Shown piece after piece: positions 7,030 to 42,079 of a stretch of 64,000 bases of DNA. Origin of the DNA: Bacillota bacterium (GTDB taxonomy: Bacteria > Bacillota > JAAYKD01); the NCBI GenBank assembly GCA_036744005.1, contig DAINOJ010000003.1, forward strand, positions 29,403-93,402, in the 5' to 3' direction. The position numbers were made by a program, and so were the translations under genes. Within the stretch, counting starts at the first letter, position 1, and each line of letters opens with the position of its first letter. The notes under the pieces were generated by a model that ran no database searches, had not been told where the DNA came from, and was given only the letters and a program-made list of their open reading frames with translations.

Positions 7030-8211
7030 GTGTTTCGATTCTTGATACATCAAATCAGTAAACAGCAAGCACGTCGTTTTTTACTTCATCGACAGGGGCT
7101 CTTAGGTCAAACTCCTTTTATTGGCAAAGAGGGGATTGTTCAGTTTGTACGAAAGAGCGGATGTTTGCAATTTGATCCCATAGATATCTGCGGGAAGAGC
7201 CCTGAGTTAAGTTTGTTTTCCCGAGTAGAAGGATTTCAAAAAAACATGCTCGACCAGTTGTTGTATGAGGACCGCCGGCTCATCGATTATTTTGATAAGA
7301 ATTTAGCCATTATTCCAACAGAAGATTGGCCGTGTTTCGAACGAACGAGAAATCGATATCGCACTAGGGTGCGAAGCGAAGAGCAGATTGAAAAAGTAGC
7401 AGAGAAAATTCGCGAAGAGTTACGAGTAAAAGGACCTCTCTCTTCCAATGAAGTGGAGCAGAAAGGAAAGGTAGATTGGTACTGGAGTAAGACCAGCTTA
7501 GCCAGAGCGGCATTGGAAACCCTATATTTTCGCGGAGAATTGATTGTGCATCATAAGCAAGGTACGGTCAAGAGCTATGATTTTGCCGAACATCATCTGC
7601 CAAAGAGGCTATTACAACAAGCAGATCCCAATGTGACGGAAGAGCAGTACCATGCGTGGGGTGTTTTGCGTCGGATTGGAGCGGTTGGATTTTTGTGGAA
7701 GAAGGCCTCGGATGCTTGGTTGGGTTTAGTGGGGTTCAAGGCTGCACAAAGAGAAGCCGCTTTTCGTCAATTAGACGCAGCAGGGCAAATCACTGCTCTT
7801 GAAATCGAAGGCGTAAGAGACAAAGTCTATTGTCTTAGTAAAGAATTACCTCTCTTGGAGGAAGCGAAAGAAAGATCTTGTCCAGACATGTTGCGGTTTT
7901 TGGCTCCACTGGACTGTTTCTTATGGGACCGAAAACTCATACAAGCATTATTTGGGTATTCTTATACCTGGGAAATATACAAAAAACCGGAACAACGCGA
8001 ATTTGGGTATTATGTGTTACCCATCTTGTATGGTGAGCAATTCGTGGGGAGAATTGAACCGGTTTGTCGACGCAAGCAAGGTTTCATGGAAGTCAAGGGT
8101 TTGTGGTGGGAACCTGACGTTGTCGTACATGCAGACTTGAAACAAGCCCTTCGAAGTGAACTGCAAAGACTAGCAGAATGGAATCAATGCAAGTGGTTGG
8201 ATACGCTTTAA
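7030..8211 (+). CDS. YcaQ/AlkZ-family winged-helix protein (DNA glycosylase-like, interstrand crosslink repair family)
   Basis: Family-typical N-terminus ISKQQARRFLLHRQGLLG, QFDPIDICGKSPELSLFSRV and C-terminal YTWEIYKKPEQREFGYYVLPILYGEQFVGRIE align to E. coli YcaQ by eye. Confidence 0.75.
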   Translation: MFRFLIHQISKQQARRFLLHRQGLLGQTPFIGKEGIVQFVRKSGCLQFDPIDICGKSPELSLFSRVEGFQKNMLDQLLYEDRRLIDYFDKNLAIIPTEDWPCFERTRNRYRTRVRSEEQIEKVAEKIREELRVKGPLSSNEVEQKGKVDWYWSKTSLARAALETLYFRGELIVHHKQGTVKSYDFAEHHLPKRLLQQADPNVTEEQYHAWGVLRRIGAVGFLWKKASDAWLGLVGFKAAQREAAFRQLDAAGQITALEIEGVRDKVYCLSKELPLLEEAKERSCPDMLRFLAPLDCFLWDRKLIQALFGYSYTWEIYKKPEQREFGYYVLPILYGEQFVGRIEPVCRRKQGFMEVKGLWWEPDVVVHADLKQALRSELQRLAEWNQCKWLDTL

Positions 8212-8249: not shown

Positions 8250-9143
8250 TTAAAACCTCATGGTTGCGCAACAAGCAGCATTCTCCAAATCGATGACCTG
8301 TTCATGACGTATGAACCGAAGAATTTCAAACGTAGTTTGATGAAGCTTCTCTTGTTGTTTTAAAAATTGCCTGACACGGATGCTGTCGTCACGAATATAA
8401 GGTTGTTCCAGCAAACAACGTTGACGTAATTGCTTTTCCAATTTTCCCTGGCGAATTCGGGCGAGAACTTGATCGGGTTTCCCCTGATAAGTGGGATCCA
8501 GCGTCATCTCATGGTCGATTTCGTGCTGTATGGCTTCCAGTTCTTGAGAAGAAAGCTCTTCTTGACGTATCACCGCAGGAGACATCGAGGCTATTTGCAA
8601 GGCCAGCTCTTTGGCAACAAATTGATTCACATCCTTTGTTGCCTGGTTTTCCATTAAGGTTAATACGACACCGATTCTCCCTTTCAAATGCATGTAAGCA
8701 TAGGGAAACGCACCTTCTATCACCTGTACGTCTTGAAGAACAATATTTTCACGAAACATCATAATCATTTTTTGTAAAACATCTTGAACAGAGGAATTTG
8801 GCTGTTCCGTCGGCATTTGCATGAGCTGAGAAACATTCGTTACGGAGGGGTGGCCAGCAGCGCGTGCGATGACCCCTGATAATTCCAGGAATTTGGGGTT
8901 CGCTGCCACAAAGGGAGTTTCACAGCGAACATGGAGCAAAATGGCCCTTCCTTGAACCACTTCGGCATAGGACACCCCGCTTTCGACTGCGCGCTCTGCC
9001 TTCTTCTGGACCAGTTGAAAACCTTTTTCCATGAGCAGAGACATCGCTCGAGTGGTGTCTCCTTCGGCTTTGAGCAAGGCCGACTTACACTCCATGATTC
9101 CTGCACCGGTTTCGGCTCGTAATCGTTGTATTTTTTCTAGCAT
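8250..9143 (-). CDS. Elongation factor Ts-like protein (divergent EF-Ts paralog)
   Basis: N-terminus MLEKIQRLRAETGAGIMECKSALLKAEGD matches the EF-Ts UBA-like N-domain (LRERTGAGMMDCKKAL). Further matches at CETPFVA, LALQIASMSPAVI and the C-terminal FIRHEQ. Start is at an internal ATG with RBS AAGGAGG; the 339-aa ORF upstream extension is not used. Confidence 0.7.
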   Translation of the reverse strand: MLEKIQRLRAETGAGIMECKSALLKAEGDTTRAMSLLMEKGFQLVQKKAERAVESGVSYAEVVQGRAILLHVRCETPFVAANPKFLELSGVIARAAGHPSVTNVSQLMQMPTEQPNSSVQDVLQKMIMMFRENIVLQDVQVIEGAFPYAYMHLKGRIGVVLTLMENQATKDVNQFVAKELALQIASMSPAVIRQEELSSQELEAIQHEIDHEMTLDPTYQGKPDQVLARIRQGKLEKQLRQRCLLEQPYIRDDSIRVRQFLKQQEKLHQTTFEILRFIRHEQVIDLENAACCATMRF

Positions 9144-9147
9144 GATT

Positions 9148-9702
9148 TCATGCCTCCTTTTCATTTTGTAAAGCGATGTATTGTTCCATAGCTTGGTCAA
9201 GCCAATGAAGCTCGTTTTGGTAGAATGACAGTATGTGTTCATCCAAACGCTGTTGAATGAAGTCCACATGAGACAGATCTGGGTTCGCTGACTTACGTTT
9301 TATTCGCTCTTTCTCAAAGAGCCACTGTTCTATTAGTTGAGAGTGATACCGCTTTAATAGCGTTATCCCTTCATCCTTCGGTAGCAAATCGATTTGTGAC
9401 CATAATAAGAGGAATCGATTGCGATATTCAGGCAATGGAATTTCTTCGGGTTGAAGTCCCGTTTGGAGTTGCCGTAAACCCTCTTCGGTCAGATGATAGA
9501 TTTTTTTAGAAGGACCACTTTCTTGATGAATCACTTCACAGGATAACGCTCCTTCTCGGCATAAAGCGAGCAGAGCCGTGTAGATTTGATTATTATTACC
9601 CGACCAAAGCTGGTGGGGAGAATCTTGCATGGCTTTCTTCAAATCATATCCGGACATGGATTTTGCCCGTAGCAAACCTAAGATTGCAAAATGGATGTTC
9701 AT
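9148..9702 (-). CDS. PadR-family transcriptional regulator
   Basis: Winged-helix signature (FAILGLL...SGYDL...IYTALLAL..EG). ATG at 9702 with RBS AAGGAGG at 9 nt spacing. Its stop lies 4 nt before the EF-Ts-like start. Confidence 0.8.
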   Translation of the reverse strand: MNIHFAILGLLRAKSMSGYDLKKAMQDSPHQLWSGNNNQIYTALLALCREGALSCEVIHQESGPSKKIYHLTEEGLRQLQTGLQPEEIPLPEYRNRFLLLWSQIDLLPKDEGITLLKRYHSQLIEQWLFEKERIKRKSANPDLSHVDFIQQRLDEHILSFYQNELHWLDQAMEQYIALQNEKEA

Positions 9703-9718
9703 TTGTATCAACCTCCTT

Positions 9719-9744
9719 AACATATGTTAATAATAACATATGTT
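9719..9744. promoter_or_regulatory. Tandem palindromic operator AACATATGTT-aataat-AACATATGTT containing the PadR-type ATGT-N8-ACAT motif
   Basis: Read directly in the sequence, immediately upstream of the padR RBS and in the divergent intergenic region shared with the ZIP transporter gene. Confidence 0.6.
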
Positions 9745-9853
9745 CTGTTCTTGTCAAGAGTACTTATTATTCAGATGGTATTTGCTTACGAAGGAAATTG
9801 CAGGTGCTTTGGTGAACACAAAAAGAAGATTTATGAGAGGAAGGAGAATCACC

Positions 9854-10690
9854 TTGGGTAATGTTTGGTTCGCCTTTTTATTAACGGTTTTTGCAGGTCT
9901 CTCTACAGGCATAGGCAGTTTAATTGCACTCTTTACCAAGAAAGTCAACAATCATATCTTGGCCATTAGTTTGGGTTTTTCTGCCGGAGTCATGATTTAT
10001 GTCTCTATGGTAGAAATTTTCTTCAAAGCCAAGGATTCTTTATCGGCGGCCTATGGAGATCAAATGGGTTTTTTGGTTACGAACATTGCTTTTTTTGCTG
10101 GAATGCTCATCATCGGTTTGATTGATAAGATTTTACCGAGTGAGCAGAACCCCCATGATTTCAACCAATCCTCTCATGTGCATGACGAGGAGGGAAAACA
10201 AGTTCTCGTCGATGGCGTCAAGCAGCGTGAAGATCATTCGAAGCTCATGAGAACAGGGGTTTTCACCGCTTTAGCGATTGCCATTCATAACTTTCCGGAA
10301 GGTTTGGCCACGTTTGTCTCGGCGTTACAAGATCCTACCATAGCTATTCCCATTGTCGTAGCCATTGCGATTCATAATATTCCCGAAGGTATGGCGGTAT
10401 CCTACCCGATATACTATGCAACGGGAGATAAGAAGAAGGCGTTCCTGTATTCATTTTTATCGGGTTTGTCAGAGCCCATAGGAGCCATTATTGGGTATTT
10501 GGTTTTAATGCCCTTCATGAATGATGTGGTTTATGGAATTCTCTTCGGTATCGTGGCAGGTATCATGGTGTATATTTCCATTGATGAGTTATTGCCCTCT
10601 GCCCAAGAGTATGGAGAACACCATTTCAGTATTTATGGTATGATTGCCGGTATGATTGTGATGGCAATTAGCCTATGGCTATTTAAGTAA
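9854..10690 (+). CDS. ZIP-family divalent metal transporter (ZupT-like)
   Basis: Motifs HNFPEGLATF and HNIPEGMAV with a ZupT-like TM layout. Start chosen at TTG 9854 (RBS GGAAGGAG, 7 nt spacing); the in-frame ATG at 9833 is an alternative. Confidence 0.75.
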   Translation: MGNVWFAFLLTVFAGLSTGIGSLIALFTKKVNNHILAISLGFSAGVMIYVSMVEIFFKAKDSLSAAYGDQMGFLVTNIAFFAGMLIIGLIDKILPSEQNPHDFNQSSHVHDEEGKQVLVDGVKQREDHSKLMRTGVFTALAIAIHNFPEGLATFVSALQDPTIAIPIVVAIAIHNIPEGMAVSYPIYYATGDKKKAFLYSFLSGLSEPIGAIIGYLVLMPFMNDVVYGILFGIVAGIMVYISIDELLPSAQEYGEHHFSIYGMIAGMIVMAISLWLFK

Positions 10691-11746: not shown

Positions 11747-11785
11747 AAAGCTCCTCTCGCTGTAGCGAGAGGAGCTTTTGTTATT
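11747..11785. terminator. Bidirectional intrinsic terminator between convergent genes
   Basis: AAAGCTCCTCTCGC-tgta-GCGAGAGGAGCTTT: perfect 14-bp stem followed by TGTTATT. Confidence 0.75.
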
Positions 11786-12371
11786 AGAACACGGAAAGGA
11801 TGCCGCCTTTTTCCTGGTGCCCGGTATCCCAAAGCAGTTTTAAGTCGGCAGTTCTGCGTTCCCCCCAAGTGGAGTATATAATCTCATCTCCCTGATAACC
11901 GGTAATCGTAAACCAGTGCCACTCAATTTCGTCGAAAAGTGGATTCGTGTGCCGTAGTAAAAGGTATTGTACACTGATTCCGGCGTCAATATAACGGTGG
12001 ATCATATTTCGTGCTTCCTCATACGAAGCATCTCCTTGCAGAGATTCGAATTGTACCTCAACTCCGTGGGCGGCGGCGTACTTGGCAAACCCACGCTCAA
12101 AAAGCTTTGTTTCAGCCATGCCACGGAATCCGGGTGCAACAAAGCGATACATACGATCGGCAAATTTGGTGAATTCCGGTTGGCTGAGGTCAAGACCGGC
12201 ATAGGGATATAAATCCGCACGTTTGGGATCATGAACGGCCAAGAGCGCAGCGGCATGACAACCACAAACCGTGGAACAACCGCCACGATTCATAATGGGA
12301 TGGCGGAATTGATATTGGTTTCCACCATATGCCCCATTCACTTTGAGAAAATCCAGTTCTCTTACTTCCAT
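11784..12371 (-). CDS. Hypothetical protein, 195 aa (possible papain-fold / C39-like cysteine hydrolase)
   Basis: Clean ORF with RBS. A Cys-containing motif GGCSTVCGCHAAALL and downstream His residues suggest a Cys/His hydrolase; low confidence. Confidence 0.35.
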   Translation of the reverse strand: MEVRELDFLKVNGAYGGNQYQFRHPIMNRGGCSTVCGCHAAALLAVHDPKRADLYPYAGLDLSQPEFTKFADRMYRFVAPGFRGMAETKLFERGFAKYAAAHGVEVQFESLQGDASYEEARNMIHRYIDAGISVQYLLLRHTNPLFDEIEWHWFTITGYQGDEIIYSTWGERRTADLKLLWDTGHQEKGGILSVF

Positions 12372-16713: not shown

Positions 16714-16769
16714 GTTGCACCTCCTAAGCCATGTGCTTATGTTAAAGCATAACATGTGGAGATAATCGT

Positions 16770-16815
16770 GTCAAAGAAAAAGAAAAGCAGGCCATGAAAG
16801 CCTTCATTGCCTGCT
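16770..16815 (-). terminator. Intrinsic terminator after the amidase gene (minus strand)
   Basis: On the minus strand, AGCAGGC...GCCTGCT hairpin followed by TTTTCTTTTTCTTT. Confidence 0.65.
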
Positions 16816-16837
16816 AAGGGAATATGATTCTGAGAGT

Positions 16838-18301
16838 CTAATTCAGGATTGCACAATCCGGGTCTTTGCGATGTTTGGTGTTGAGTTCGTATCCAGAGGC
16901 GATTTCAAGGAGCAATCCTTCTTGCCAGGCACTTGCGGTAAGAGACATACCAAATGGCTCGCCATTGGCTAGGTAACCGACGGGTACACAAATAGAAGGG
17001 TACCCAGCTCTAGCGGCCAATGTTGCTACACTGGAAGCAGCGAAGACGAGCGCATCGACCTTATATGTTTGTAAAGCCCAATCGATTCCTTCTTCACGGG
17101 ACCATTTTAAGTCGTTTTTTCGGTCTTGGATGTATTCTTTTTCACTCAAAGACCCACTGCGCGCCTGAGCTGCAATAAATTGGCTTTGGCCATATTTCAA
17201 GCATTGTTCGCTGTATTCTTGGTTGAAGCGGATCACATCGTTCATGTTGTGAACCGGTAGGTGAGATTCCACCGTGGAAAGGTATTTATTCAGAGCCGGT
17301 TTAAATTCAAAACTCATGGCATTGCCCACATTCCAAGCTTGTTTTCTTAGTTCAGCAAAACCGGGTATGTTTTCGATGATCTCAACCTCGGCACCCAAGG
17401 CTTTCACTTCATCCATGACACGCTTCATGGTATCTTGTTTTTCTTGGGAGAAGCAGTCATAATTCTGCGTGACAAAACCTAAGCGTTTGCCCTTCAGGCC
17501 ATCTGTTTTAATGTATGCAGTATAATCTTCTTCCATATGCCCGGAAGCCGACATTGTAGCAGCATCCTCATCGTCCACACCTACCATGGCATTCAGTAAG
17601 AAGGCGGCATCTTCGGTGCTAAGGGCTAAAGGACCGGCTGTATCTTGGCTGAACATAATTGGAATGATACCGCTACGACTGACGAGACCGACCGTGGGTT
17701 TGATTCCGACCAGGCTATTCCAACTGGCGGGGCTCATAATCGAACCGCTGGTTTCGGTACCCACCGCTACCGGCACCATGCGAGCCGCCACAGCAGCCGC
17801 GGAACCGGAACTGGAACCGCTGACATCGAAGACATCGGGACCATAGGGATTGAACACTTGTCCACCCCTTGAACTATAGCCGTTACGCATGTTCTGGGCC
17901 ATAAAATTCGCCCACTCGGTCATATTGGCTTTCCCAAATACGATGGCTCCGGCTTTACGCAAGCGTTTGACCACATAAGCATCTTTGGCGGCATAATGGT
18001 CTTTGAGGGCAAGCGAACCGGCAGAGGTATGGCACATATCGTGTGTGTCGATGTTGTCTTTAAGCAAGACCGGGATACCATGCAGGGCTCCTTTGGCTTT
18101 ACCTCGAGCTCGTTCACGATCTTTGGCTGCGGCCAAGTGTTCGAGTTCCGGATTCAATTCCAAAATAGCATTCAATTTGGGACCTTCATGATTGAGATGA
18201 GCTACCCGGTCTAGGTAAAAGCGAACGAGTGCTTGCGAAGTCAATGTGCCGTCATCTAGAACTTGTCTGAGTTGCTTCAGAGATAAGGACAAAATATCCA
18301 T
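16838..18301 (-). CDS. Amidase-signature (AS) family amidase
   Basis: Gly/Ser-rich AS motif GGSSSGSAAAVAARMVPVAVGTETSGSI and catalytic-region conservation. RBS GGGAGG. Confidence 0.8.
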   Translation of the reverse strand: MDILSLSLKQLRQVLDDGTLTSQALVRFYLDRVAHLNHEGPKLNAILELNPELEHLAAAKDRERARGKAKGALHGIPVLLKDNIDTHDMCHTSAGSLALKDHYAAKDAYVVKRLRKAGAIVFGKANMTEWANFMAQNMRNGYSSRGGQVFNPYGPDVFDVSGSSSGSAAAVAARMVPVAVGTETSGSIMSPASWNSLVGIKPTVGLVSRSGIIPIMFSQDTAGPLALSTEDAAFLLNAMVGVDDEDAATMSASGHMEEDYTAYIKTDGLKGKRLGFVTQNYDCFSQEKQDTMKRVMDEVKALGAEVEIIENIPGFAELRKQAWNVGNAMSFEFKPALNKYLSTVESHLPVHNMNDVIRFNQEYSEQCLKYGQSQFIAAQARSGSLSEKEYIQDRKNDLKWSREEGIDWALQTYKVDALVFAASSVATLAARAGYPSICVPVGYLANGEPFGMSLTASAWQEGLLLEIASGYELNTKHRKDPDCAILN

Positions 18302-18516: not shown

Positions 18517-21500
18517 ATGTTCCGTCTCGGTACAAACCAGCGGTTCATTCGGGTGATTCATTGGTTATTGATATTTTCCATGATCGTCCCCCAAATTTCG
18601 GTAGTAGCGGTAGTGCAAGCACAAGAAAACGAGCAGACTCCAAGGCAGGAGTCTGTTTTTTTATCGGAAATCTCTTCCGACCCAGTTTTTCTGAGAGATG
18701 TTCCGGCAGGATCTACGGTGCAATTTGCGTCATATGATTGGCTGGTGCTCGATCCTGCCAATGGTATGCTGATCAAACAATCTCCCTATGGTACTCCGGT
18801 CCCCTACGACTCGTCAACACCGGGTGGTAATGTCTATTTCCAACCTTCGAATGCTAGCAACATTGGGTTTTTGTTAAATACGACCTTCTTATCCAGCTTA
18901 TCTGCACTCGACCAAAGCCGAATTCGCAATGTGAACTGGGAGATTGGGCCACAAGGACACGAGTGGGAGCACATCGTAGGTGCCAAGGTCGGGCTGTTAA
19001 ATACCATGCAAGTTCAAACCGAACCGGTAGCCAGCCAGTTGCAACCGTTTTTGGCGGACTCCTGGTTGCTGACTTGGCATGCCGTTGAGTATGATACATA
19101 TGCTTGGGCTTCCGGACTTTCTGGTAATTACTACATCGGTTCAGACCTTCTCCCAACCGTGGAAACCGATTACTCTGTGGGTCATAATGTCCACCCGGTG
19201 ATGTACTTATCCCCGAATACACCAACCTTAAGCGGAGCCGTCATACCACCACAAAATGAGATTCTTAGCTTCAGCGTACCGAACCAGAGGGGCGAAAGTG
19301 TGTTCGATTACGACACCTCGACCCTTACGTTTACGGTTACGGATTTGGTCGACCTAACCTCCATTGCCCCGCAAATTACGGTTTCTCCCGGAGCAACGTC
19401 TCAAGTGGTGAACGGTGTGGCTACGGATTTGTCGATTCCAACCACCTGCACCGTGACTTCATCCGATGGTTTCACAAAAAATTGGGTATTGGTTGCGCAG
19501 GTGCTTAGCACGAAAACCGATATCACTGAATTTAGCGTAGATGAAATGCAGCTGGTTGGCGAAGACAATTACGCCACCATAAACCGCAGTCTCCACACGG
19601 TACATTTTTTAGTCCCGGCAGATACCGATGTCACTCAACTGACCCCATCGATTTATGCCATGATGGATGCGAATATTGTACCCGAAACGAAAACAACGCA
19701 GGATTTCACTTCGCCGGTGGCTTATACCGTGACCGCCGAAGCGGGAAATTCGCAAAATTGGTTGGTCACTTGTGTGCGGGTAGGCGACACTGTGCCTTAT
19801 ACCGTAGAGCATTATCATCAGGATTTGGTCGGATTAAATTATTCCTTGAACCATACCCAAACTCTTTCGGGAACCTTGGGTAGCACCGTCACGGCTTCCA
19901 CCCAGAGCAGCTCTGGCTTTGTAGAAAACATCACCCAAGCAAACCGAATCACCTCTGGTGTGACCCAATTGGATGGCAGTTTAACTCTGCGACTTTATTA
20001 TGACCGGACTCTGCATCGTGTGACGTATGAAGAAGATGGTGGTAGTAGCGTGGCGGACCTCGCTTCTCTGCGCTATGGTAGTACGTTGACTACACCACAG
20101 ACTCCTGTCAGAACCGGCTACCAATTCTTGGGCTGGTTTACCGATGTAGACCGAACTCAAGCAGCATCTTTTCCCATGATCTTGACTGCAGACACCACCT
20201 TCTATGCCAAATGGCAATCTACGCTGGGAGAGCCGGGAGATATCACCGGATTTACGGTGCGCAATCAAAAAGGCAATAGCAGCATCACTCGTTATGATGG
20301 GTATGGTAGCATCGATTTGGTGATGCCAGCCGGTAGCGATGTACAATTCCTGTCACCGGTCATTACCACGGCTGCGGGTACGACGATTTCTCCTGCTTCC
20401 GGGGAAATTCGAGATTTTCGTGGCTCGGACCAATATGGGGTTGAATATACAGCAAGTTATGGCGAGGATTCAACTCTTGCCTGGTATGTACGGATGACCC
20501 TCGAAGAGGAACCCAAAGAAATTCGGACATTTCACGTCCCCGGACAGCTGGGAGACTCTATCATCAACCCAACCGACCATACCGTGTATTTTGTCATGCC
20601 TTTTGGTAGCGATGTAACTACTTTGCGGCCTTCGATTACCGTACCTAATTGGGACACCGTTTTTACAGGATACTGGTGGGGAGTGCAAAACTATTACTCA
20701 CCGACGGCATACGATGCAGAGGATTTCTCGTATCCGGTTGAATTTCATGTTGTAGGGAGCGATTCCATTGAGCAAAGTTGGACCGCTACCTGCAGGGTTC
20801 AGGCGGAAACAGCGGGGTATATTTCATCCTTTACTGTGCCAAGCCAGGTGGGGAACAGTTTCATCGACATGGTAAACCACAAAGTGGTCTTCCACATGCC
20901 CTACGGCACCGACGCCACTCATCTTGAGCCTACTATTGTAGTTCCTGCCGGAAGCACCCTGCAGCCCTTAGCCGATAGCGTTCGCGATTACTCCGGCTTG
21001 GTCTATTTCCAGGTCACTGCTCCGGGAGGAAGCCCCCAACTGTGGACCGTGCAATGCATCGTTGACCAGAATACCGAAAAGAGTATCGCAGGGGTGACCC
21101 TGGAGAAGAGCAAAGGTGTCGTCATCGATTCGGCTCTGCATACTGTCACCATAAAAATGCCGGCTGAAACCGATGTCACCAGTCTGGCACCACAGTTCCA
21201 ACTACCGGCGGGTGCAGAGATCTACCCTTCTTCCGGAATTGCCAAAGATTTCACTTCGCCAAGGCAGTACTTGGTTTATGCCCAAGATGGGAGCAAACAG
21301 CTTTGGACAGTAACAGTGTTACTATTGGGAAATGTGACCGTAGAGCATTATCAGATGATGCCTTCGGGAGATTGGTATGGAGTGGAGAGAGTCAACTATT
21401 ATTACGATCAGCAACCTAGTAGTACTTTTACCGCCGAAGCAGCTACTTTTGTGGGTTTTGTGGAGAACACCACGCACTCATCCCGTGTACCTGCCGGAAC

Positions 21501-24500
21501 CGTTCAAGCAGGGAAAACATTGACCCTCAAGTTGTATTACGACCGCCTACCCTACACCGTTCAATTTGTGGAAAATGGTGGTAGTGAAATTGCGGATTTA
21601 ACCCATGTTCTCTATGGAACCTGGCCAACACGACCCACTCCACCCGTGAAAACGGGGTATCGATTAGAAAACTGGTATACCGACCCAGAATGGACTAATG
21701 CTTATCAATTTAATGTGGATCTCACACAAGACCTAGTCCTCTACGCCAAATGGGAAGTCACCCCTCCCGTACTTTCACCTGCGGGTGGAAAGTATGCCCC
21801 GGGAATTACCGTGACAGCCGATATCGATTGCTATTACACCCTCGATGGCTCTGACCCACGCACCTCGTCCGGAGTGTTCCTCGCAGCGGGTGCAAGCATC
21901 GCCATAGACCAAACGACCTTGGTCAAATCGTGTTCTAAGCTTGCCGGAGAATATAGCCCGGTAGAAGAAACCACCTATGAAATCGTTACAACCAAATATT
22001 TGGTGAGCTTTGAGAGCAATCACGGAAGTGCCGTCGAAGCACAAGAAATTGCCTATGGACATCGTGCCACATTGCCGCAGACGCCGACTCAATATGGGTA
22101 CACCTTTGTTCATTGGTGCAGCGATATTCATTTAAGTGAACCGTATGATTTCTCAACCGCAGTTTATGAGGATATCACCCTGTATGCAAAGTGGACGTTC
22201 GCTACCTTAACCATCACCTTCGATACCCAAAGTGGGAGTACCATAGAACCCGTTTCTGCATGGTTTGGCACCTACTTAACCGAACCCACCCCACCCAGCA
22301 AAGCCGGATATACCTTTAAAGAGTGGAACCCAGCTTTCCCGAGCACCATGCCGGGAGAAGATATCACCTTAACTGCCATTTGGACTGCCAACCAGTATAC
22401 TCTACACTTCAATTCCGACGGTGGAAGCACTGTTGCAGACCAGTTGCAAACCTATCTTCAACCCATATCGGCTCCGGTTGCTCCTACCAAAACAGGATAT
22501 ACGTTTGCCGGTTGGTCTCCGGCGATTCCCAATGTCATGCCCATGTCCGATCTTACTGTCACGGCCCAATGGACGGTGAATCAATATACCATCACTTTCG
22601 ATTCTGACGGTGGCACAGCCGTATTACCTATAACTCAAGATTATGGCAGTACCCTGATTTCACCCGAGAATCCTACCAAAACCGGATACGAATTTGGTGG
22701 ATGGACTCCGTTTCTCCCTGCTACCATGCCTGCTGAGAATTTGACCTTGACAGCGTACTGGGGAGCAAATTTCTATACCGTCACCTTGGACACCAACGGG
22801 GGCAATCTCATCGACCCCATCCGCCGCGAAGTCAACACGGTGTTGACGGCACCGGCCAATCCAGTGCGAGCCGGATATATCTTTACTAGCTGGCAACCCT
22901 CATTCCCCTCGACAATGCCTGCTAATAACATGACCATTACAGCACAATGGCAAGCCAATTCGATTACACTGAGCTTTGATTCGGCCGGTGGTTCTGAAGT
23001 GGCTTCGATAGTACAGCTGTGCGATACGACGTGGACTCCTCCAGCGAATCCAAGCCGAGCCGGATATACCTTTGTTGCCTGGAACCCACTCTTGCCGAGC
23101 AAAATACCAACCTCTAACCAAACCCACACGGCAATGTGGAGCATCAACTCTTATACGATCAGCTTTACTACCGCAGGGGGCTCCGATGTTGCGAGTATGA
23201 CAGAAGCGTACAATACCCCCCTAACCCAGCCAACGAATCCAACCCGAACCGGCTATACCTTTAGCGGTTGGAATCCCACTTTCCCCACGAAGATGCCTGC
23301 CGAAAATCGAACCTTGGTGGCTCAGTGGACTCCGAATCTTTACACAGTGACCTTTGATTCCAAAGGCGGCTCTGCGGTAACACCAGTCACCCAAGAATAT
23401 CTCAAAGCCATAACTCTACCGAGCAACCCCTCCAAAGCAGGGCATACCTTTACCGGCTGGTATACCGATGCCGAAGCCACACTGTTATATGACTTCAACA
23501 CACTGATTACCGGAAATCGTACCCTTTATGCCGGTTGGCAGATACAAAGTTACCTGGTTCGCTTTGAAGACTGGGATGGCGAACTCCTCAAAGAAGAAAC
23601 AATAATCTATAACACCGCATCCAATCCACCGGTGAGTCCCGACCGTATGCCGACCGCTCAATACTTCTTTGAATTTACTGGTTGGGGTGGGGATACCAGC
23701 AAAATCACGTCTGCAACCACCTTTACAGCGGTGTATGAATCCATTTTGCGCCAATACACAGTGTATTACCTCGATACCACTGGGACAGAGATCTCCACCC
23801 AAACCGTTGCTTACGATAACTGGGCTGCGGAACCTCAACAACCTTATCGTGAGGGTCTCACCTTCATGGGTTGGTACCAAGATTCTGCTTTGATAAATGC
23901 GGTCACATTCCCGGTGCTCATACAGGGGGACATGTCGTTCTATGCCAGTTTCAAACGACCCGGAAACGAAATACTATCTTTCGAAGTAGCTGGGCAAGTA
24001 GGGAGCACCAGCATCGACTCCTATTTCAACATCGTGAGCCTAGTGGTACCATGGCATACCGACCGCACTCAACTCGTGACCACCATTACCGTTTCTCCGG
24101 GGGCACTGGTTTCGCCGGCTTCCGGAGTCGCCACGGATCTTAGTAATGGCAAGAATTTCACAGTCACTGCAGAAGATGGCAGCCAAAAACAGTGGTTGGT
24201 AATGGTTGGCGAAGCTGAATCTCCCAACGAAATTGAAACGTTCAAGGTTACCGGTCAAAATGGAGATAGCATCATCGACCCCGTCGCCCGCACGGTTGTC
24301 TTTCACATGCCCTTTGGCAGCAATGTGACCGCCTTAAGACCTGAAGTAACACTGACCTATGGGGCGTATTGCAACATTGGCTGGTTCCCCGACATGGACT
24401 ATGGGGGTCGTAATCCGGTTGATTTTACTTATCAAGTGAAATACACCGTGATTACCGACCAGAAAGGATCCTACTCGTATTGGCAAGAATGGCTGGTAAG

Positions 24501-27500
24501 CTGTGTTATCGATCCCAACACTGCCCATGATTTCACTGCGTTCTCTGTGCAAAATCAGGTAGGCAACAGCGAAATCAACACAGCAGACCATACCATTGTC
24601 TTTCATATGCCCTATGGGACTGACGTAACCAATTTGCAACCCCAGTGGACGTTGTCGGCCAATGCTGCGGTGAGCCTAGGGGCTTCCATCCGGGACTATA
24701 GTCAACCTGTTACCATGACTACTCGCTCCGAAAGTGGGGCAGAGCAAGTGTGGCAAATCACATGTGTCGTAGATCCCAACCGAGCCAACGATATTACCCA
24801 GTTTGTGGTGGCGAACCAAGTAGGGAGTAGCCAAATCGATGCGGCGAATCACACGATTGTATTCCACATGCTCTACAACACCGACGTCTCGGTCTTAACG
24901 CCACAAGTATTGATATCGGAAAAAGCCACCCTTTCGCCGGTGTCTGGACTGGTTCGTGATTTTAGATTACCTCAAACCTATGAAGTGACCTCTCAGAGTT
25001 TAGAAGTTCAGAATTGGACCGTGACCTGCGTGGTGGACCCCAATCGTGAAAACAAGATAGTAAGTCTGACCGTGCCAGGGCAAATAGGGCAGACTACTTG
25101 GGACGAAAGCAAGCAAGCCTGGGTGTTCCATGTGCCCTACGGAACCAACATTCAACAACTTACACCGAGTTTGACTCTCTCGGAGGAAGCTTCCGTGAAT
25201 CCAGCCAGTGGTACGACCTTAGATTTCAGCCAAGAGCAAATCTACACCGTGATTGCTCAAGGAGGAGAAATTCAAACTTGGGCCGTCCAATGTATGGTCG
25301 AACCCAACCAAGCAAACGACATCCTCACTTTTGTTGTAGACCGTCAGGTGGGCGAGAGCCTCATCGATGCGGCTCTACATACGGTGACCTTCCATATGCC
25401 CTATGGCACCAACGTCAAGACCTTAAACCCGAGCTTTACACTATCGGAACGGGCCAGCAGTGATGTGGCATCGGGAGTCCCTCGAGATTTTACACTTCCG
25501 GTGACCTACGGTATTCTCTCCGATAGTCAAGACGTACAGCTTTGGACCGTGACCTGTGTGGTGAACCCCAACACGGAAAACCGAATTCTTGGTTTCTCTG
25601 TGCCAAGCCAATCGGGTAGTAGTGTGATCGATACCAATGCACATACCATTACCCTTGCAGTTCCCTATGGCACACCCACTGGTGCGGTCATACCCACCTT
25701 CACCATTTCAGCAAAATCAACGGTAGAACCGGGCATTGGCGCAAGCGTGAATCTCGGGCAGCCGGTTGTCTACACCGTGACCTCTCAAAGTGGAACAGCT
25801 CAAACCTGGACCGTGACATGCAATATTTTACCCAATACCCAAAAGAATATAGAGCATTTTACGGTTCCGGGCCAAATCGGGGATACGGTCATAGACCAGA
25901 TCAACCATACCGTGCGCTTTGAAATGCCGTTTGCGACTCCGGTTACGGCCTTGACTCCAACCCTTGTCCTCTCAGTCGAAGCCAGCGTTTCACCAATCTC
26001 AACAGCTCAAGTCGACTTTTCTCAGCCGCAAACCTTTACAGTGACTGCACAAGATGGCACCAGTCAGGCATATATTGTGACTTGTATCCGTCGCAATACG
26101 GCGAATGATATTGTGAGTTTCCGAGTCAATGGTCAATACGGAAGCACTCAAATCGATTCTGTGAATCACAGCGTCCTCTTCTACTTGTTCCCAGGCACGT
26201 CCGTGAGCGCTCTTGCACCTACCCTAGAATGTTCCACTGGTGCCACGGTTTCACCAGTCAGCGGTAGAGAGCAAAACTTCAGTTCCGCCGTGGTCTACAC
26301 CGTTACCGCTGAAAACGGAACCCCCCAACTTTGGACGGTGACTTATCGCATATACTATGAACCCGAAGAAGAGGTAGCTCCACCGGTTAAACCACCAACA
26401 CCCCCTCCGGAAGATCAACCCTTGAAACCCAAGGAGCTGGAAGAGAAAATCGAACCATTAAAGAAAACCTTTGTTCAGGTGGCAACCGATAGCGCTTCGG
26501 GAATCACTTCCAAAACTGCAACCCTTGCAGGCCGCATCGTTGCAGGTGGCGGGGACTTGACCGTGGGATTCCGCTACCGTCAAGCCGGTCAAAGCGATTG
26601 GATGTATACCGGAACCAGCAGTCAAACCATTGGCAATGGTGGAACGTTCTCCACAACCTTGACGGATCTCTTACCCGGAACCGAATATGAAGCAGAAGCC
26701 AGAGCAGCCAACAGCTTTGGTTTAGGGGAAGGCGGAGTCGTATCTTGGAAGACCACAGCGGCAACAGCACCGAAAGTGGCAACCTATGAAGCCGTTGGGT
26801 TGAGCTTAAATCAAGCTACCCTCACGGGTGCGGTACTGGATGATGGAGGATCTGTTCTCACCAATACCGGCTTCCAATGGGGCTTGAGTGAAGATTCTGC
26901 TTCCGAAGTGAGCACCGGCATCGGTAAACTACTACAAACCACCATTACGGACTTGAAACCGGGTCAGAAAATCAGCTATCGTGCATTTGCCGGCAATGCC
27001 GTTGCGACGACCTATGCTTCTTGGCAAACCTTTACAGTTCCTGGTTTGGTCGTCACCACCTTGAAGCCAACCGAAATCACTCGATCATCGGCAACTTTGC
27101 AAGGTCTCATCGTCGGCAGTAGCAAAATCATCGAAAGCGGTTTCAGTATTAGCCCGGGAGATGTCAATCTCCTCTTGGCAAACCCCAATGCGCAAGGTGA
27201 ATTCTCGGTCAACTTGCAGAACTTAAAACCCGATGCCAAGTACTATTACACGGCCTATGCCAAAACAGCCGTCGGAGAATTCCGTGGCGAAGTTCAAGAG
27301 TTGATACTCGTCAATGACTTCCCGGTGGTAGAAACGTTGGAAGCCACGGAGAAGGCAACCATTGTGGCCAACATCGGTGGCTATGTCATCAAGAACAGTG
27401 GCTATAAGATTACCGACAGTGGCTTTGTCTGGGGTATGGACCCCAATCCCGACCAAAAAATCTCGGTGTCTCCTGGTGAAGACCTACGAACCCTGCAATA

Positions 27501-30500
27501 TAAACTGGTGGGGTTAAAGGGGGGTACCACTTATTACTATCGAGCCTATGCTACGAACGAAAAGGGTACTGGATACGGTAAGACCATGCAGTTTATCACT
27601 GCAAAGGCCCTAAAACCGACAGTGGTGACGCAATCGGTGAGCTTTGACCCTGCCAGCTGGCAATGGGTTCTGGTGGGAAGTGTTGCCAACAACGGTGGCG
27701 TTCCTTTGGTGGAATATGGCTTCCGCATTAGCAGCGATGAAAGCCAATGGGCGAATTTGGTGGTTGGCTTCGACGTGCGTGGGAATTATATCTCGAGAGG
27801 GTTGCAGTTCATGGATGAACTAACACCCGGTACATACTACATGCGTGCGTATGCTTTGAACCCAGGTGGCATGGGAGAAGGGGAAATCCTCTCGTTTAAG
27901 GTGCCCACCAAACCGAGTATCACGGCTGCAGTGGATAGGGAAAGCATTGTATTGGATCATCTCACACTCGTCGGGACAATCACCGATACGGGCGGTTCAG
28001 AGATTTCTTGTGTGACCACTCAATTTAAGGTTCGCAAAGTGGGTGAAAGCGAATGGACTACACTGGGGACCACCCAAGGTGTGTTTGGAATAGGGGATTT
28101 CCGTTTTGATGCCAGCAGCTTGTCCCCCGGAGCGAAGTATGAGCTCATGGCCGAGGCTCGCAACCAAATTGGCTGGGGAAGCAGTGCGGTGGTTTCTTTC
28201 CAAATGAACTATGGCAAAACAGATCGAGATGCGGTAACGTATTTGAAAACACAAGGAAAGACGGCTACCGAGATTGCTACGCTTTTGAAGACCTATTATC
28301 AAGATAGCCCGGCCTCTGCCTTTGCTGCCTTGGTATTTGGAGAATTCAGCTTAAGTGACATCACAGCGGCGATGAAACAATCGACATATGCCACCAGCCA
28401 CCGTAATGTGGCAAACCTCATTCAACAAGCAGGTTACGATGCTAAGGCTCTGACGAAAGTGATGTTAGAGCATTATGACCGTGATGTACTAATGATGGCC
28501 AGCGGGAATCGAGAAGAAGGTGCCTTGCTGTTAGCCAAAGTCAGTGGGTATACTTCTGTTGATCTTGCCAAAGTATGTTTGGAGCTGTTCCAATACGATA
28601 CAGCAAGAACCGTATCCCGATTAAGTACTTATAATTTCTATGGGCAAGACGAAGCATATCGAGCGGCCCTAGAAGTGTATGGACTAGAGTCTATGATACA
28701 ATTTTTGCTTGCCCAAGCGAATAGCTCCTTGCAACGTAGTGGTCAAGGGCGTATGCTTACAATTTTGACGGAAACAACCGCTTTTTTGCGTAACGTTGCG
28801 AAGTTGAGTTCAGAAGAAACGGCAAGTGTGTTAACGCGTTTTCATGCTGGCTTAAGTGCCAAAGAGCTAGCCAATGCGTTCTATTATGCCAAAGAAACCG
28901 TTTTCGAAACGGGCAAGGCCATTGCTTACTTGTTTGGGAGCAATCTTTCTGATATCGCCAGAGCACTAGAAGATACGCCCTTGAAAGAAGAGCGCATCAA
29001 CGACTACCTGATTTTAGACCTCGGAGCATCGGCTTTGGATATGGTGCCCATTGTGGTCGATATCTATAACCACTGGATGGACCCCAAAGAAGGGTGTGCC
29101 ATTATTTTCAAAACCTACTTCAAGTTAGATGCGATTGGTGCGGCGAAAGTTTTATATGCCGCCGGATGGACGGAGAATGTCGTCGATTATCCCGGTTATG
29201 GATTAGGTAATCTCATTTGGACCATGAAGTTACACTATGGCTACACCAGTGATGCGCAGTTGATTGAAGTATTTAAAGCGCTGGGGTTGTCCCCTCTGGA
29301 AGTAGCCAAACGGTTGGTGAACAATTCCGGCTGGCGGTGGTTACCATCATACCGGTTGGGTGGATACACAGCGACCGATGCCGCGGTCTGGCTCAAAGCA
29401 GATTGGGTGAAATACGGTCGTAGAACGCAAATCAGTCAGACCATTAAGATGTGCTATGAGGCCGGTTATGAGGTATCGGACATTGCATCGGCTTTGATTT
29501 TCCACTATGACCTCGAAATTGCTGAGGCCATGGCATTCTTTGTCGACAACATCAATCTGAGCTCGACAGCCATTAACGAAGCATTAACCAAGGCTTATGG
29601 CAAAGATCCTTTACAAAGCGCAGTAGAAAAAATGAAAGGGCAACCGCTGGAGAAGATTCTTTCGACTCTAAAGAGTACGTATGAAGTGAAAGATCCGGTT
29701 GAGGTGACAAATTTACTAATCAAAGCGGGGTATTCGCAGGAAGCCATTTTCGAAAAGATGATTTGGACCTATTTTGAATCGTTTAATCGGCGAGAGCATC
29801 TTGAGGCATTTACGGCATATCTGCAACAAATAGACTCTGGATTGAATCGAAAAGACGCCATGAATGCATTTCTGCGTCGAAATCAACTTGCGGAAGGCCC
29901 AGAACACGCTGCCGGTTTCCTCAGGCATTCTGCACAGTATTCTATGAGTGAAATCGCGGAAATCTTCCAAAACGAGTACCAAATAACCATTGCAGAGGCG
30001 TTGACCGTCTTCTTTAGCACCTTTGGAGCAGGCAAAGAAGTAGAGTATTACCCGGTTGTCGTCAAGGCCTACGATATGGACGTTAGCAGTTACATCAGAT
30101 ATCAACACAAACGGGGCATTGACGCAACCGAGAGTACCAAAGAACTCATCGACAACTTCAAACTGACCAATCAGATTGAAATCGCAGAAGTCCTCTACAA
30201 AAGTGATTACAATAAAGAAGCCATTGTCCAGAGTTTCCTGCAAGTATACTTCTCCGGTTTTCTAAGTCCGGAAGTAATAACGCTCATGAATGAGTTGGAT
30301 GAGAAGGTATTTAAGCAAGGATTGAGCGTACAAATCGAAACACTGACACAAAAAGGTACGTTGCAACCCGTAACAAAGGTGATTACAACCTTGTACGCCG
30401 CGGGGATTTCGCTAACAGAGATCATCCGAACTCTGAAAGATTTATATGCACTTTCTCAGAAAGAAGCTCATGACAGTACCATGGCGGTGTCTCTGTTCTC

Positions 30501-38863: not shown

Positions 38864-39122
38864 TGGAATTATATGGTTACAAACAAATGGCCAAAAATTT
38901 ACAATGATTATTTTTAATCAGAGAAGGAGTTTGTAAAAAACAGCACGAATAACAAAGACATTCGATATGTGGCTTAAACATACACTATGCATCAATATGT
39001 TGTGTTTCTATACTCGTTGAACAATTAATACGGTTACAAATTAATTACATGCATACTTTGGGGCTTTGACGTAAAAACAAAGCTCTTTCGTATAGATTTG
39101 GACCAAGAAGGAGGTGAAAAAT

Positions 39123-39905
39123 ATGGGTCTCGCTCCAGGCAATATTTTTGGATTTTGGATGTTCCTCATTTGGACCGGATTAGCGGTTTTTGTCATGAAT
39201 CGTTCCCGTACCGGTCAAATTCATGTGAAATTGCGTCGTATTTCCGGTATGGACGCGGTGGAAGAAGCGGTAGGTCGTGCCACCGAAATGGGTAAACCGG
39301 TGCATTTTACTCCGGGGTTAGGGGATGTTGTGGCCAGCAATGCTGCTGAAACCTTTGCAGGGCTCGAATTACTGCAATATGTCTCTGGATTAGCAGCCAA
39401 ATACGATGCCGGTTTAATCGTAACCATTCGTCAACCCAACGTTTTTCCATTGGCGCAAGAATCGGTAAAACAGAGCTTTTTGACGGCCGGTCACCCGGAC
39501 AAGTACCAAGAAAACACCGTTCGTTTCATCTCGAATAACCAAGACGCGTATACATCGGGTGTGGTAGGTATTCTGCATCGCGAGAAAGCGGCTGCCAACA
39601 TTATGGCTGGTTTGTTCATGGGTGAATCTCTGCTGTTAGCAGAAGCGGGTTCGCAAATTGGAGCCATTCAAGTGGCGATTACTGCTTCTACCACTCAGTT
39701 ACCGTTCTTTGTTGCGGCATGTGACTACACCATTATTGGAGAAGAATTATACGCTGCCGGTGCTTATGTCTCGCAAAACAAAATCAAATTGGGCGGCATT
39801 GCTACTCAAGACTATTTTAAATTAGCGGTCATCGCGGTCATTATCCTTGGAACTATTATGACTTCTATGGGCAGTACTGCTTTGAAAGATTTATTGGTTC
39901 GCTAA
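39123..39905 (+). CDS. Uncharacterised bitopic membrane protein (gene 1 of a four-gene membrane operon)
   Basis: RBS AAGGAGG 8 nt before ATG. N-terminal TM (IFGFWMFLIWTGLAVFVM), ~200-aa soluble region, C-terminal TM (LAVIAVIILGTIMTSM). No recognised motif. Confidence 0.6.
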   Translation: MGLAPGNIFGFWMFLIWTGLAVFVMNRSRTGQIHVKLRRISGMDAVEEAVGRATEMGKPVHFTPGLGDVVASNAAETFAGLELLQYVSGLAAKYDAGLIVTIRQPNVFPLAQESVKQSFLTAGHPDKYQENTVRFISNNQDAYTSGVVGILHREKAAANIMAGLFMGESLLLAEAGSQIGAIQVAITASTTQLPFFVAACDYTIIGEELYAAGAYVSQNKIKLGGIATQDYFKLAVIAVIILGTIMTSMGSTALKDLLVR

Positions 39906-39947
39906 GGATGCAACGTATACTTTAAAAACAATAAGGAGGTGTAAACC

Positions 39948-40583
39948 ATGCGAAAGCAAGTACCTGTGCTGATTACCTTTGTGGTTGGTATTCTCGTCAT
40001 GCTAGCCGGCATTACGACCGGACCATTGCCCGGAGTGTTTAAGAATCATATCAGTCCTTGGATGACCATTGTCTCTGCGTTCGCGGTAGGTTTGGCTTCC
40101 GTCAACTTAACACGCGTGCATGGACGCAAAATTAGTCGCAAAAGCGAAGGTTGGATCAACAGTGTCATCTTATTGGGTAGTATGGCGATTTACGCCATTT
40201 GGAGATCGTATATCGAAATCAATCCGACCGACAAAGTGGCGGTCGATGGTTATGCTTTAATCTATAATCATATTTTATCTCCCTTATCTTCCGGTATTTG
40301 GGCTTGTTTGGCGTTTTACGTGGCTTCGTCTTCGTATCGGGCATTCCGTGCGCGCAACCTGGAAGCGACCATTTTGCTGGTGTCCGCTGTCGTGGTCATG
40401 TTGGGGGCAGCACCCATCGGAGCTCAAATCTGGGACAAATTCCCGACCATCCAAAACTGGCTACTCAGTGTTCCCAATATGACCGGTCAACGAGGCATTG
40501 TGATTGGCGCGGCTTTGGGTAGCTTTGTCACCGCCTTACGTGTCTTGTTAGGGTTGGAACGGGGCCATCTTGGTTCACAATAA
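39948..40583 (+). CDS. Uncharacterised polytopic membrane protein (gene 2 of the operon)
   Basis: RBS AAGGAGG. About 5-6 predicted TM helices. Confidence 0.6.
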   Translation: MRKQVPVLITFVVGILVMLAGITTGPLPGVFKNHISPWMTIVSAFAVGLASVNLTRVHGRKISRKSEGWINSVILLGSMAIYAIWRSYIEINPTDKVAVDGYALIYNHILSPLSSGIWACLAFYVASSSYRAFRARNLEATILLVSAVVVMLGAAPIGAQIWDKFPTIQNWLLSVPNMTGQRGIVIGAALGSFVTALRVLLGLERGHLGSQ

Positions 40584-40616
40584 GCAAAGATCTTGCAGAA
40601 AAGGAGGTGTCCAAGC

Positions 40617-41441: not shown

Positions 41442-41458
41442 AGTGAGGAGGTGATTTT

Positions 41459-42079
41459 GTGAATATATCTACCAACATTTGGACGTGGACCACGGCCATC
41501 TGCATTTTGGCCATGTGGACCTTCTTGTTCAAAGAAAACCCCATCTTTCGTGCGGCAGAGCATTTGTTCGTCGGAAGTACAGCGGGACATGCCATCGGGA
41601 TGGCCGTGGGCAATATTCATCGCTACGGTTTTAATCCTTTAGTGCAAAAGCAACAGTTGTTGCTGTTGGTTCCGTTGGTCTTAGGCGTCTTGCTCTATGC
41701 CAGATTTTTCCCCAAATGGGCTTGGCTCAGCCGTTATCCGGTTGCTTTCTTGGTTGGTGTGGGAACAGGGCAGTCGATTTATACCTCACTGCGCACCCAA
41801 GTCATTAACCAAAGCATTGGAGCGATGTATAAATTCCCGGGGAATACCGCACTCGATACCATCAATGCATTCATCAGCGTTTTTGGATTGCTGGCAGTAT
41901 TATGTTACTTCTTATTCACAATCCCCCTCAAAGGTGGATTGCAGCAGTTTGCGAAATCAGGTCGGTGGATTATGATGGTGACTTTTGGCGTGGCTTTTGG
42001 CAACGTGGTCGCCGGTCGTATATCTGTTTTATTGGGTGAACTCACGAAAATTCTAGGTGATTGGTTGGGTATGATGTAA
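41459..42079 (+). CDS. Uncharacterised polytopic membrane protein (gene 4 of the operon)
   Basis: GTG start after GAGGAGGTG. About 6 predicted TM helices. Confidence 0.6.
   Translation: MNISTNIWTWTTAICILAMWTFLFKENPIFRAAEHLFVGSTAGHAIGMAVGNIHRYGFNPLVQKQQLLLLVPLVLGVLLYARFFPKWAWLSRYPVAFLVGVGTGQSIYTSLRTQVINQSIGAMYKFPGNTALDTINAFISVFGLLAVLCYFLFTIPLKGGLQQFAKSGRWIMMVTFGVAFGNVVAGRISVLLGELTKILGDWLGMM

Follow-up and report, generated by a model that had tools for sequence, protein, structure and literature searches.

In this work we have examined a 64-kb stretch of DNA (the window) from a Bacillota bacterium (contig DAINOJ010000003.1 of assembly GCA_036744005.1), and specifically a minus-strand gene whose 297-amino-acid (aa) product resembles elongation factor Ts (EF-Ts), the product of tsf, and which lies directly behind a gene for a PadR-type repressor. 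We propose, with moderate confidence, that this protein is an accessory, ligand-inducible paralogue of EF-Ts which would bind EF-Tu with an altered exchange chemistry, and that it is not the housekeeping tsf product. This confidence applies to the proposal as a whole and is mostly carried by its anatomical and evolutionary parts. The unit under study has the following components:

9730..9757, minus strand: sigma-70-type promoter (TTGACA, 16-nt spacer, TATTAT, upstream TG; 11 of 12 consensus positions)
9718..9744: putative PadR operator, two TAACATATGTT copies, ATGT-N8-ACAT, overlapping the -10 element
9148..9702, minus strand: gene for a PadR subfamily-1 repressor, 184 aa, first in the predicted operon (PF03551, 46.6 bits)
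9144..9165, minus strand: junction of the PadR and EF-Ts-like genes, read directly from the sequence
8250..9143, minus strand: EF-Ts-like gene, 297 aa, second in the predicted operon, assigned from its open reading frame (ORF) and hidden Markov model scores
8208..8249: intrinsic terminator, a 15-bp perfect stem between an A run and a U run
7030-8211, plus strand: AlkZ-like gene, convergent with the EF-Ts-like gene and sharing its terminator

The ORF of the EF-Ts-like gene extends on the minus strand from 9269 to 8250, and its sensible start is the ATG at 9143 (MLEKIQRLRAETGAGIMECKSAL..., MLEKIQ), which gives the 297-aa product. The PadR gene almost certainly starts with the ATG at 9702, which was picked by gene callers in 7 public copies and has an AAGGAGG ribosome-binding site (RBS) 9 nt ahead of it; the alternative 191-aa reading from 9723 is less likely. 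The PadR stop codon (TGA, 9150-9148) is followed by only 4 nt (9147-9144) before the ATG of the EF-Ts-like gene, whose Shine-Dalgarno sequence AAAGGAGG lies within the 3' end of the PadR gene. In relatives the PadR stop and the EF-Ts-like start overlap by 4 nt (locus L001) or are separated by a 1-nt gap (L003).

Upstream of the pair, the 11-nt sequence TAACATATGTT occurs identically at 9718-9728 and 9734-9744, with a start-to-start distance of 16 nt, and the two copies form an 11-nt perfect inverted repeat with arms separated by 4 nt. The resulting ATGT-N8-ACAT pattern, ACATATGTTAATAATAACATATGT (9720-9743), covers the -10 element, and this 24-nt pattern occurs just once in the window; the element is conserved in 14 related loci. 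ATGT-N8/10-ACAT is given as the canonical PadR operator motif in PMC3506622. At the other end, the terminator common to the EF-Ts-like gene and the convergent AlkZ-like gene folds with -25 kcal/mol (z-score -9.8), and none of 200 shuffled sequences was equally stable. Promoter and operator, PadR, the EF-Ts-like gene and the terminator thus make up a self-contained two-gene unit, and the layout suggests that the two genes are one co-transcribed operon repressed by its own first product. A constitutive core translation gene would not usually have a repressor operator placed over its -10 element.

The closest solved relative of the window PadR is B. subtilis PadR (5x11, E 2e-12), with which residues 3-168, spanning both domains, could be aligned. 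Its SGYD, NQIY and SKKIY segments align with Tyr20, Tyr42 and Lys67 of the B. subtilis protein, so the two tyrosines and one basic residue that canonically contact DNA (PMC5728393) are kept. As judged from its sequence, the window PadR is a PadR subfamily-1 repressor of about 180 aa with a winged helix-turn-helix domain and a C-terminal dimerisation domain. An earlier note on this DNA had suggested a link to phenolic acids, and here it finds no support. B. subtilis PadR needs His154 and Arg164 to bind phenolic acids, and both are absolutely conserved in PadR orthologues (PMC5728393), whereas the window PadR has Gln and Phe at these positions, which fall in a low-posterior part of the alignment. 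Nor was a phenolic-acid decarboxylase gene (padC) found nearby among the window ORFs scanned with Pfam. Genes for detoxification and drug resistance are the typical targets of PadR regulators (PMC3506622).

The pairing of these genes and their signals is conserved well beyond the window. In eleven loci (L001, L002, L003, L010, L011, L012, L013, L016, L098, L099 and L100) the EF-Ts-like gene is immediately preceded by PadR, and the two coding regions abut or overlap; these loci include members with only 37-42% identity to the window protein and several with unrelated flanking genes. At every one of these loci a double ACATATGT operator stands upstream of PadR, with a TTGAC -35 element on one side and the RBS on the other, and in the relatives compared the -35 element keeps an unchanged distance from the operator. 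Two Syntrophomonadaceae metagenome-assembled genomes (MAGs), L014 and L015, have no adjacent PadR, yet the promoter and a double (A/T)CATATGTTA operator are kept directly upstream of the EF-Ts-like gene:

L014:9720-9980: promoter-operator region
L015:7920-8177: promoter-operator region

Their cognate PadR must be encoded elsewhere or have been lost. Retention of the operator without the repressor gene indicates that the EF-Ts-like gene is the conserved target of regulation. Where both genes are present, the two proteins diverge in parallel: the identities of the EF-Ts-like protein and PadR are 0.81 and 0.73 between L001 and L010, 0.62 and 0.54 between the window and L001, and 0.42 and 0.38 between the window and L003.

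Is the protein really an EF-Ts? It scores 145 bits against PF00889 (cutoff 27) and 176.9 bits against the TIGR00116 tsf model (cutoff 104). On the latter scale another member of its clade reaches 192 bits, a sister clade 201-225 bits and four rpsB-linked or canonical EF-Ts proteins 265-337 bits. An AlphaFold2 model has a mean pLDDT of 91 and a pTM of 0.84, with residues 285-297 below a pLDDT of 50. Foldseek matched this model to experimental or modelled EF-Ts structures at TM 0.74-0.81, among them 9a75_A (TM 0.81) and 1efu_B (TM 0.74) over ~289 columns. The predicted structure is thus a full long-form EF-Ts fold, with core subdomains N and C and the coiled coil. The identity of the window protein to rpsB-linked EF-Ts is 27-36%. 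The genomic setting departs from that of tsf as well: when RpsB, PyrH, Frr and canonical EF-Ts were used as tblastn queries, no further translation gene came up in the 64-kb window, Pfam recognised none among 28 further ORFs in the first 43,000 positions, and Rfam detected no structured RNA in the window. At the 11 family loci examined, rpsB, pyrH and frr were likewise absent from the vicinity. The next-best EF-Ts matches, which do not belong to the family (P0013, P0014 and L101), all follow rpsB, and P0013 is itself followed by pyrH and frr.

These results confirm what the earlier note had observed and support part of its interpretation. Its EF-Ts-like 297-aa ORF with a ubiquitin-associated (UBA)-like signature is confirmed by the PF00889 and TIGR00116 scores together with conserved N-terminal residues, and the start 4 nt past the PadR stop is as the sequence reads. 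Strong divergence outside the rpsB-tsf context, which it had also claimed, agrees with the 27-36% identity and with the tblastn searches, in which RpsB, PyrH and Frr were missing from the 64-kb window. Co-transcription with PadR is backed by the conserved promoter, operator and terminator and by a gene pair that is kept down to about 40% identity. Finally, an alignment of the EF-Tu-contact residues, which the note had recommended, revealed abnormal conservation: in E. coli numbering, Asp80 is lost in all five members of the window's clade, and Glu74, Asn76, Arg133, Arg41 and Gly261 are changed.

For this comparison 17 family members were aligned with 113 canonical long-form EF-Ts proteins including that of E. 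coli. The family falls into two clades, that of the window (n=5, 62-99% identity to the window protein) and a sister clade (n=12, ~40%), which retains nearly all canonical invariants. The positions at which the window's clade departs are, in E. coli numbering:

Arg41: R in 103/113 canonical proteins; Met in the window's clade
Glu74: E in 110/113 canonical proteins; His or Asn in the window's clade
Asn76: N in 104/113 canonical proteins; Arg in the window's clade
Asp80: D in 112/113 canonical proteins and 12/12 of the sister clade; Pro or Ser in 5/5 of the window's clade
Gly126: G in 106/113 canonical proteins; Arg in the window's clade
Arg133: R in 105/113 canonical proteins; Asp or Ser in the window's clade
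Gly261: G in 107/113 canonical proteins; Val in the window's clade

In the TDF motif of the window protein Phe78, the equivalent of E. coli Phe81, is kept, whereas Pro77 replaces the catalytic Asp80. According to PMC5770160, no EF-Ts residue has a larger contact area on EF-Tu than Phe81; the same text, citing Kawashima 1996 and Schümmer 2007, states that Mg2+ coordination is destabilised where Phe81 intrudes near His84 of EF-Tu. Elsewhere in the core, H152 (E. coli His147) and E132 are invariant, and the Gly of the G-E-N-I block has become Arg. The N-terminal UBA-like helix (TGAG-M-M-D-C-K-K-A-L) is present and reads LRAETGAGIMECKSAL in the window protein; R9, M17, C19 and K20 (E. coli Arg12, Met20, Cys22 and Lys23) are kept by the family and by 94-113 of the 113 canonical proteins. 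Retained throughout the family, in E. coli numbering, are Leu11, Arg12, Thr15, Gly16, Gly18, Met20, Cys22, Lys23, Phe81, Val82, Glu127, Tyr145, His147, Lys206 and Gln231. Family-wide charge changes, relative to a canonical set that is mostly short-form EF-Ts, affect Lys9 (to Gln), Glu13 (to Lys or Gln), Lys24 (to Ser or Asn) and Lys84 (to Ala, Ser or Gly). Instead of the canonical C-terminal module, the window's clade has a conserved tail, ...HEQV(V/I)DLE(N/S)A(A/S)(C/Y)CA(T/V)MRF, of which residues 285-297 of the window protein (..DLENAACCATMRF) are predicted by AlphaFold2 to be disordered. Since the replacements are mostly fixed within the clade, they point to a new constraint and not to decay. 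With the whole fold and the main docking residues kept, binding to EF-Tu has most likely been retained; with the Asp of the TDF motif and residues near it in sequence exchanged for others that are themselves conserved, the protein is probably a slow or altered exchange factor.

The family is rare. Its close relatives, about a dozen proteins (P0001-P0012) with 38-99% identity, were all that a search of 5.8 billion proteins returned before ordinary EF-Ts, and P0007, labelled elongation factor Ts by JGI, is the sole one among them named by its source. A profile search of 1.84 billion cluster representatives (50% identity clusters) gave 6 matches above 340 bits; these were followed by multi-domain proteins with 4-5 matched stretches and then by single-domain canonical EF-Ts at 272 bits or less. 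Among 185,579 GTDB species, each represented by one genome, 7 carry the family, all of them MAGs, labelled as uncultured Eubacteriales (3), Oscillospiraceae (1), Pelotomaculum sp. (1) and Syntrophomonadaceae (2). Members come throughout from uncultured Clostridia MAGs and are patchily distributed across Clostridia lineages. A scan of JGI and ENA metagenomes added 4 further loci, and the exact window protein is present in at least 20 contigs of ENA and Logan assemblies. In a neighbour-joining tree of the 17 family members and 113 canonical EF-Ts proteins the family forms a single exclusive clade.

The genes are intact at every locus examined, and in unsaturated pairwise comparisons the ratio of nonsynonymous to synonymous substitution rates (dN/dS) is 0.08-0.27 for the EF-Ts-like gene and 0.12-0.17 for PadR; both are therefore under purifying selection. 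Even so, they evolve faster than the genes around them. Between the window and the syntenic loci L001 and L010 the EF-Ts-like proteins share 62-65% and the PadR proteins 57-62% identity, whereas neighbouring proteins share 82-91% (MFS transporter 84-87%, ZIP transporter 88-91%, M20 peptidase 82-85%). An essential EF-Ts without a second copy should be no less conserved than the genes around it, and the lower conservation of the EF-Ts-like protein argues against a housekeeping role. EF-Ts is generally regarded as universal in bacteria, and as the family occurs in so few species, its carriers should have a second copy. From the patchy distribution, the fast evolution relative to neighbours and the repressor control we infer that a canonical tsf lies elsewhere in the genome.

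How might such a unit work? We suggest that dimers of ligand-free PadR bind the double palindrome that overlaps the -10 element, thereby repressing both their own gene and the EF-Ts-like gene, and that some small-molecule or stress signal would release PadR, whereupon both proteins are made. The EF-Ts-like protein would then dock on EF-Tu through its N-terminal helix (TGAG-I-M-x-C-K), Arg12, Lys23, the Phe81 wedge and His147. Sister-clade proteins are probably competent as alternative exchange factors. With those of the window's clade, GDP release from EF-Tu would probably be slowed or altered, and on induction they may modulate, hold or protect EF-Tu in place of exchanging GDP and GTP rapidly. 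Perhaps the EF-Ts fold has been repurposed still further, as an inducible EF-Tu-binding regulator or protector whose PadR senses an EF-Tu-directed antibiotic, toxin or stress metabolite; we consider this specific version unlikely. The Asp80-less paralogue would in that case occupy EF-Tu and either displace an inhibitor or park EF-Tu in a nucleotide-bound, inactive complex.

Several points weigh against an accessory, EF-Tu-directed paralogue with altered exchange. No member is linked to a gene for EF-Tu or another GTPase, and it is from the retained residues that EF-Tu is presumed to be the partner. No canonical tsf was recovered from the carrier genome, of which the 64-kb window was searched, so paralogy is presumed from distribution, rate and regulation. 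Repression by PadR is likewise predicted from the position of the motif and from the known behaviour of the family. Zhang, Spremulli and colleagues reportedly found that changing Asp80 of E. coli EF-Ts, which acts with Phe81, to Ala lowers activity only a few-fold; the loss of this Asp alone is therefore no proof of lost exchange. Moreover, no catalytic residue has been lost in the sister clade, so the whole family may be made up of ordinary exchange factors.

Could the gene simply be the only housekeeping EF-Ts of its host, relocated away from rpsB and evolving fast? With 177 bits against a TIGR00116 equivalog cutoff of 104, the protein would be annotated as tsf by automatic pipelines; a second tsf was not seen in the 64-kb window, and a canonical copy from the same MAG was not retrieved. 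We nevertheless regard this as very unlikely, because only 7 of 185,579 species genomes, from scattered Clostridia lineages, carry the family, an operator covers its -10 element, an Asp80 present in 112 of 113 canonical proteins is lost, and 62-65% identity beside neighbours at 82-91% is the opposite of what an essential conserved factor should show. The same fast evolution, together with the loss of several near-invariant EF-Ts residues, might instead be read as the decay of a functionless duplicate. That reading has hardly any probability left: the ORFs are intact at the loci examined, the replacement residues are fixed within the clade, the promoter, operator, RBS and terminator are conserved, and dN/dS values of 0.08-0.27 effectively refute it.

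Two further alternatives grant the gene a function. It may be that the induced protein protects a target or serves as a decoy, binding EF-Tu, or a toxin that needs EF-Ts or EF-Tu, and so shielding the cell from an elfamycin-type antibiotic or an inter-bacterial toxin sensed by PadR. Kirromycin competes with EF-Ts for EF-Tu. A ligand-responsive repressor beside a variant of an essential translation factor is the architecture of inducible resistance genes, the docking residues are kept while the catalytic ones are remodelled, and the pair behaves as a two-gene cassette in differing genomic contexts. We know of no precedent for EF-Ts-mediated resistance, which counts against this idea, as do the lack of consistently linked antibiotic, toxin, immunity or transporter genes at the loci examined, the lack of a PADLOC match, and the absence of family members from plasmids and phages in the collections searched. 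The typical association of PadR regulators with detoxification and drug-resistance genes (PMC3506622) speaks for it; on balance we think it quite unlikely. The other alternative would take the protein away from EF-Tu altogether, as a co-sensor or anti-repressor partner of PadR or in some other moonlighting role. The tight co-divergence of the two proteins and their near or overlapping coding regions would suit a partnership, and so would the family-wide charge changes in the N-terminal domain and beside the TDF motif (Lys9, Glu13, Lys24, Lys84) and the tail of the window's clade, which is conserved yet disordered, unlike the canonical C-terminal module. An operator without an adjacent PadR in L014 and L015, however, better fits a regulated target than an obligate partner, and the family-wide invariance of Phe81, His147, Arg12, Lys23 and TGAG is hard to explain without EF-Tu binding. 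A role outside translation thus seems to us unlikely.

Some other possible associations were considered and rejected. A mobile-element origin was dismissed since no family-level match was found in plasmid or phage collections; most of the matches listed there, at 35% identity or less, look like ordinary tsf, several of them in very large records labelled as plasmids or phages, and one (H10) lies in a chromosomal rpsB-tsf-pyrH-frr context. A defence system was likewise set aside, as PADLOC gave no match for the EF-Ts-like protein, PadR, the AlkZ-like protein or a 195-aa neighbour. A link to zinc through the ZIP transporter fails because the adjacency occurs only in the window's clade (window, L001, L010, L098 and L099) and is absent in L003, L012, L013 and L100; it is therefore probably incidental. 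A link to spore germination was rejected because a divergent three-gene operon (523, 366 and 379 aa) upstream of the EF-Ts-like gene is found only in the two related MAGs L014 and L015; this operon was read as gerA-like from its layout.

By Pfam, the genes around the unit encode an MFS transporter, a GGDEF protein, the convergent AlkZ-like glycosylase, the divergent ZIP transporter and an AraC/GyrI regulator. The ZIP-family transporter gene (9740-10690, plus strand) diverges from the PadR promoter and has an ambiguous start, either at 9740 (316 aa, overlapping the operator region) or at 9854 (278 aa, as in several public copies). The 195-aa protein (11784-12371, minus strand) has no Pfam or PADLOC match and shares 78-86% identity with its counterparts in the syntenic L001 and L010. 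Further along the window are two giant ORFs on the plus strand, 18517-32190 (4557 aa) and 49116-56726 (2536 aa), which probably encode cell-surface proteins; a syntenic 4548-aa protein of L001 has DUF5018, Flg_new and fn3 domains, and the 2536-aa ORF has a weak TIG match. The region 39114-42079 (plus strand) holds a DUF6754 gene followed by 3 ORFs (211, 282 and 206 aa) with no Pfam match, has genes for a TetR regulator and an ABC-2 transporter upstream of it, and may be an uncharacterised membrane operon. Two overlapping plus-strand ORFs, 44379-45230 and 45010-45588, resemble a frameshifted or split gene for a pyridoxal phosphate-dependent enzyme; in the public copy L177 both (276 and 134 aa) match Cys_Met_Meta_PP (PF01053). 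The family profile also catches multi-domain proteins of 470-1175 aa (P0170-P0181 and similar), which are not related to the finding described here; with their four or five EF-Ts-like stretches, they may resemble the plastid polyprotein of EF-Ts.

What would a bacterium gain from a second EF-Ts, and what does an EF-Ts with Phe81 alone and no Asp80 do to EF-Tu? The cassette, with a defined repressor, an operator and a natural catalytic-site variant, offers a compact and directly testable system for such questions. A regulated EF-Ts paralogue would surprise translation specialists. Should the protein prove to be an EF-Tu-binding regulator or protector, a role in resistance or in throttling translation would be described for the first time for such a paralogue. 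There is a practical side too: all family members score above the TIGR00116 cutoff, so pipelines label them housekeeping tsf, and such mislabelling could mislead analyses of MAG completeness or of essential genes. As the family is rare and its carriers are a few uncultured anaerobes, its general reach is limited.

The usual view of EF-Ts is that of a constitutive housekeeping factor present in a single copy. For EF-Tu, EF-G, EF-P and ribosomal proteins regulated paralogues have been described, but our literature search found no regulated or PadR-linked paralogue of EF-Ts. Compared with housekeeping EF-Ts (tsf; PF00889, TIGR00116; structures 1EFU, 4PC1-7 and 1AIP), the window protein has the same domain order (N-terminal UBA-like, duplicated core, coiled coil), profile scores above the cutoffs, and Phe81, His147, Arg12, Lys23, Cys22 and TGAG in common. 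It differs in lacking rpsB, pyrH and frr as neighbours, in its PadR operator, C-terminal tail and faster evolution, in the residues that its clade has at Asp80, Glu74, Asn76, Arg133, Arg41, Gly126 and Gly261, and in an identity of 27-36%. By profile and predicted fold it is a member of the EF-Ts superfamily, one that lacks the TDF aspartate and the rpsB context. A stand-alone gene annotated as tsf (16751-17578, L180) is also found on the 86.6-kb mobilizable plasmid pRho-VOC14-C86 of Rhodococcus opacus (NZ_CP130955.1); its product has 30% identity to the window protein and falls outside the family, and its neighbours are helicase-related and DUF1156 genes, with no PadR. The regulator, for its part, shares with B. 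subtilis PadR (5X11; PMC5728393) the two-domain build of about 180 aa, Tyr20, Tyr42 and Lys67, and an ATGT-N8-ACAT element in its own promoter; His154 and Arg164 are not conserved, and its predicted target is an EF-Ts paralogue, not a phenolic-acid decarboxylase. Conditional extra copies of translation components are familiar from the kirromycin-resistant EF-Tu3 of Streptomyces ramocissimus and from the zinc-free ribosomal protein paralogues regulated by Zur. By analogy, the window's unit would be a further case of an extra, divergent and conditional translation component, with EF-Ts in the place that is taken in those systems by EF-Tu or ribosomal proteins responding to known signals.

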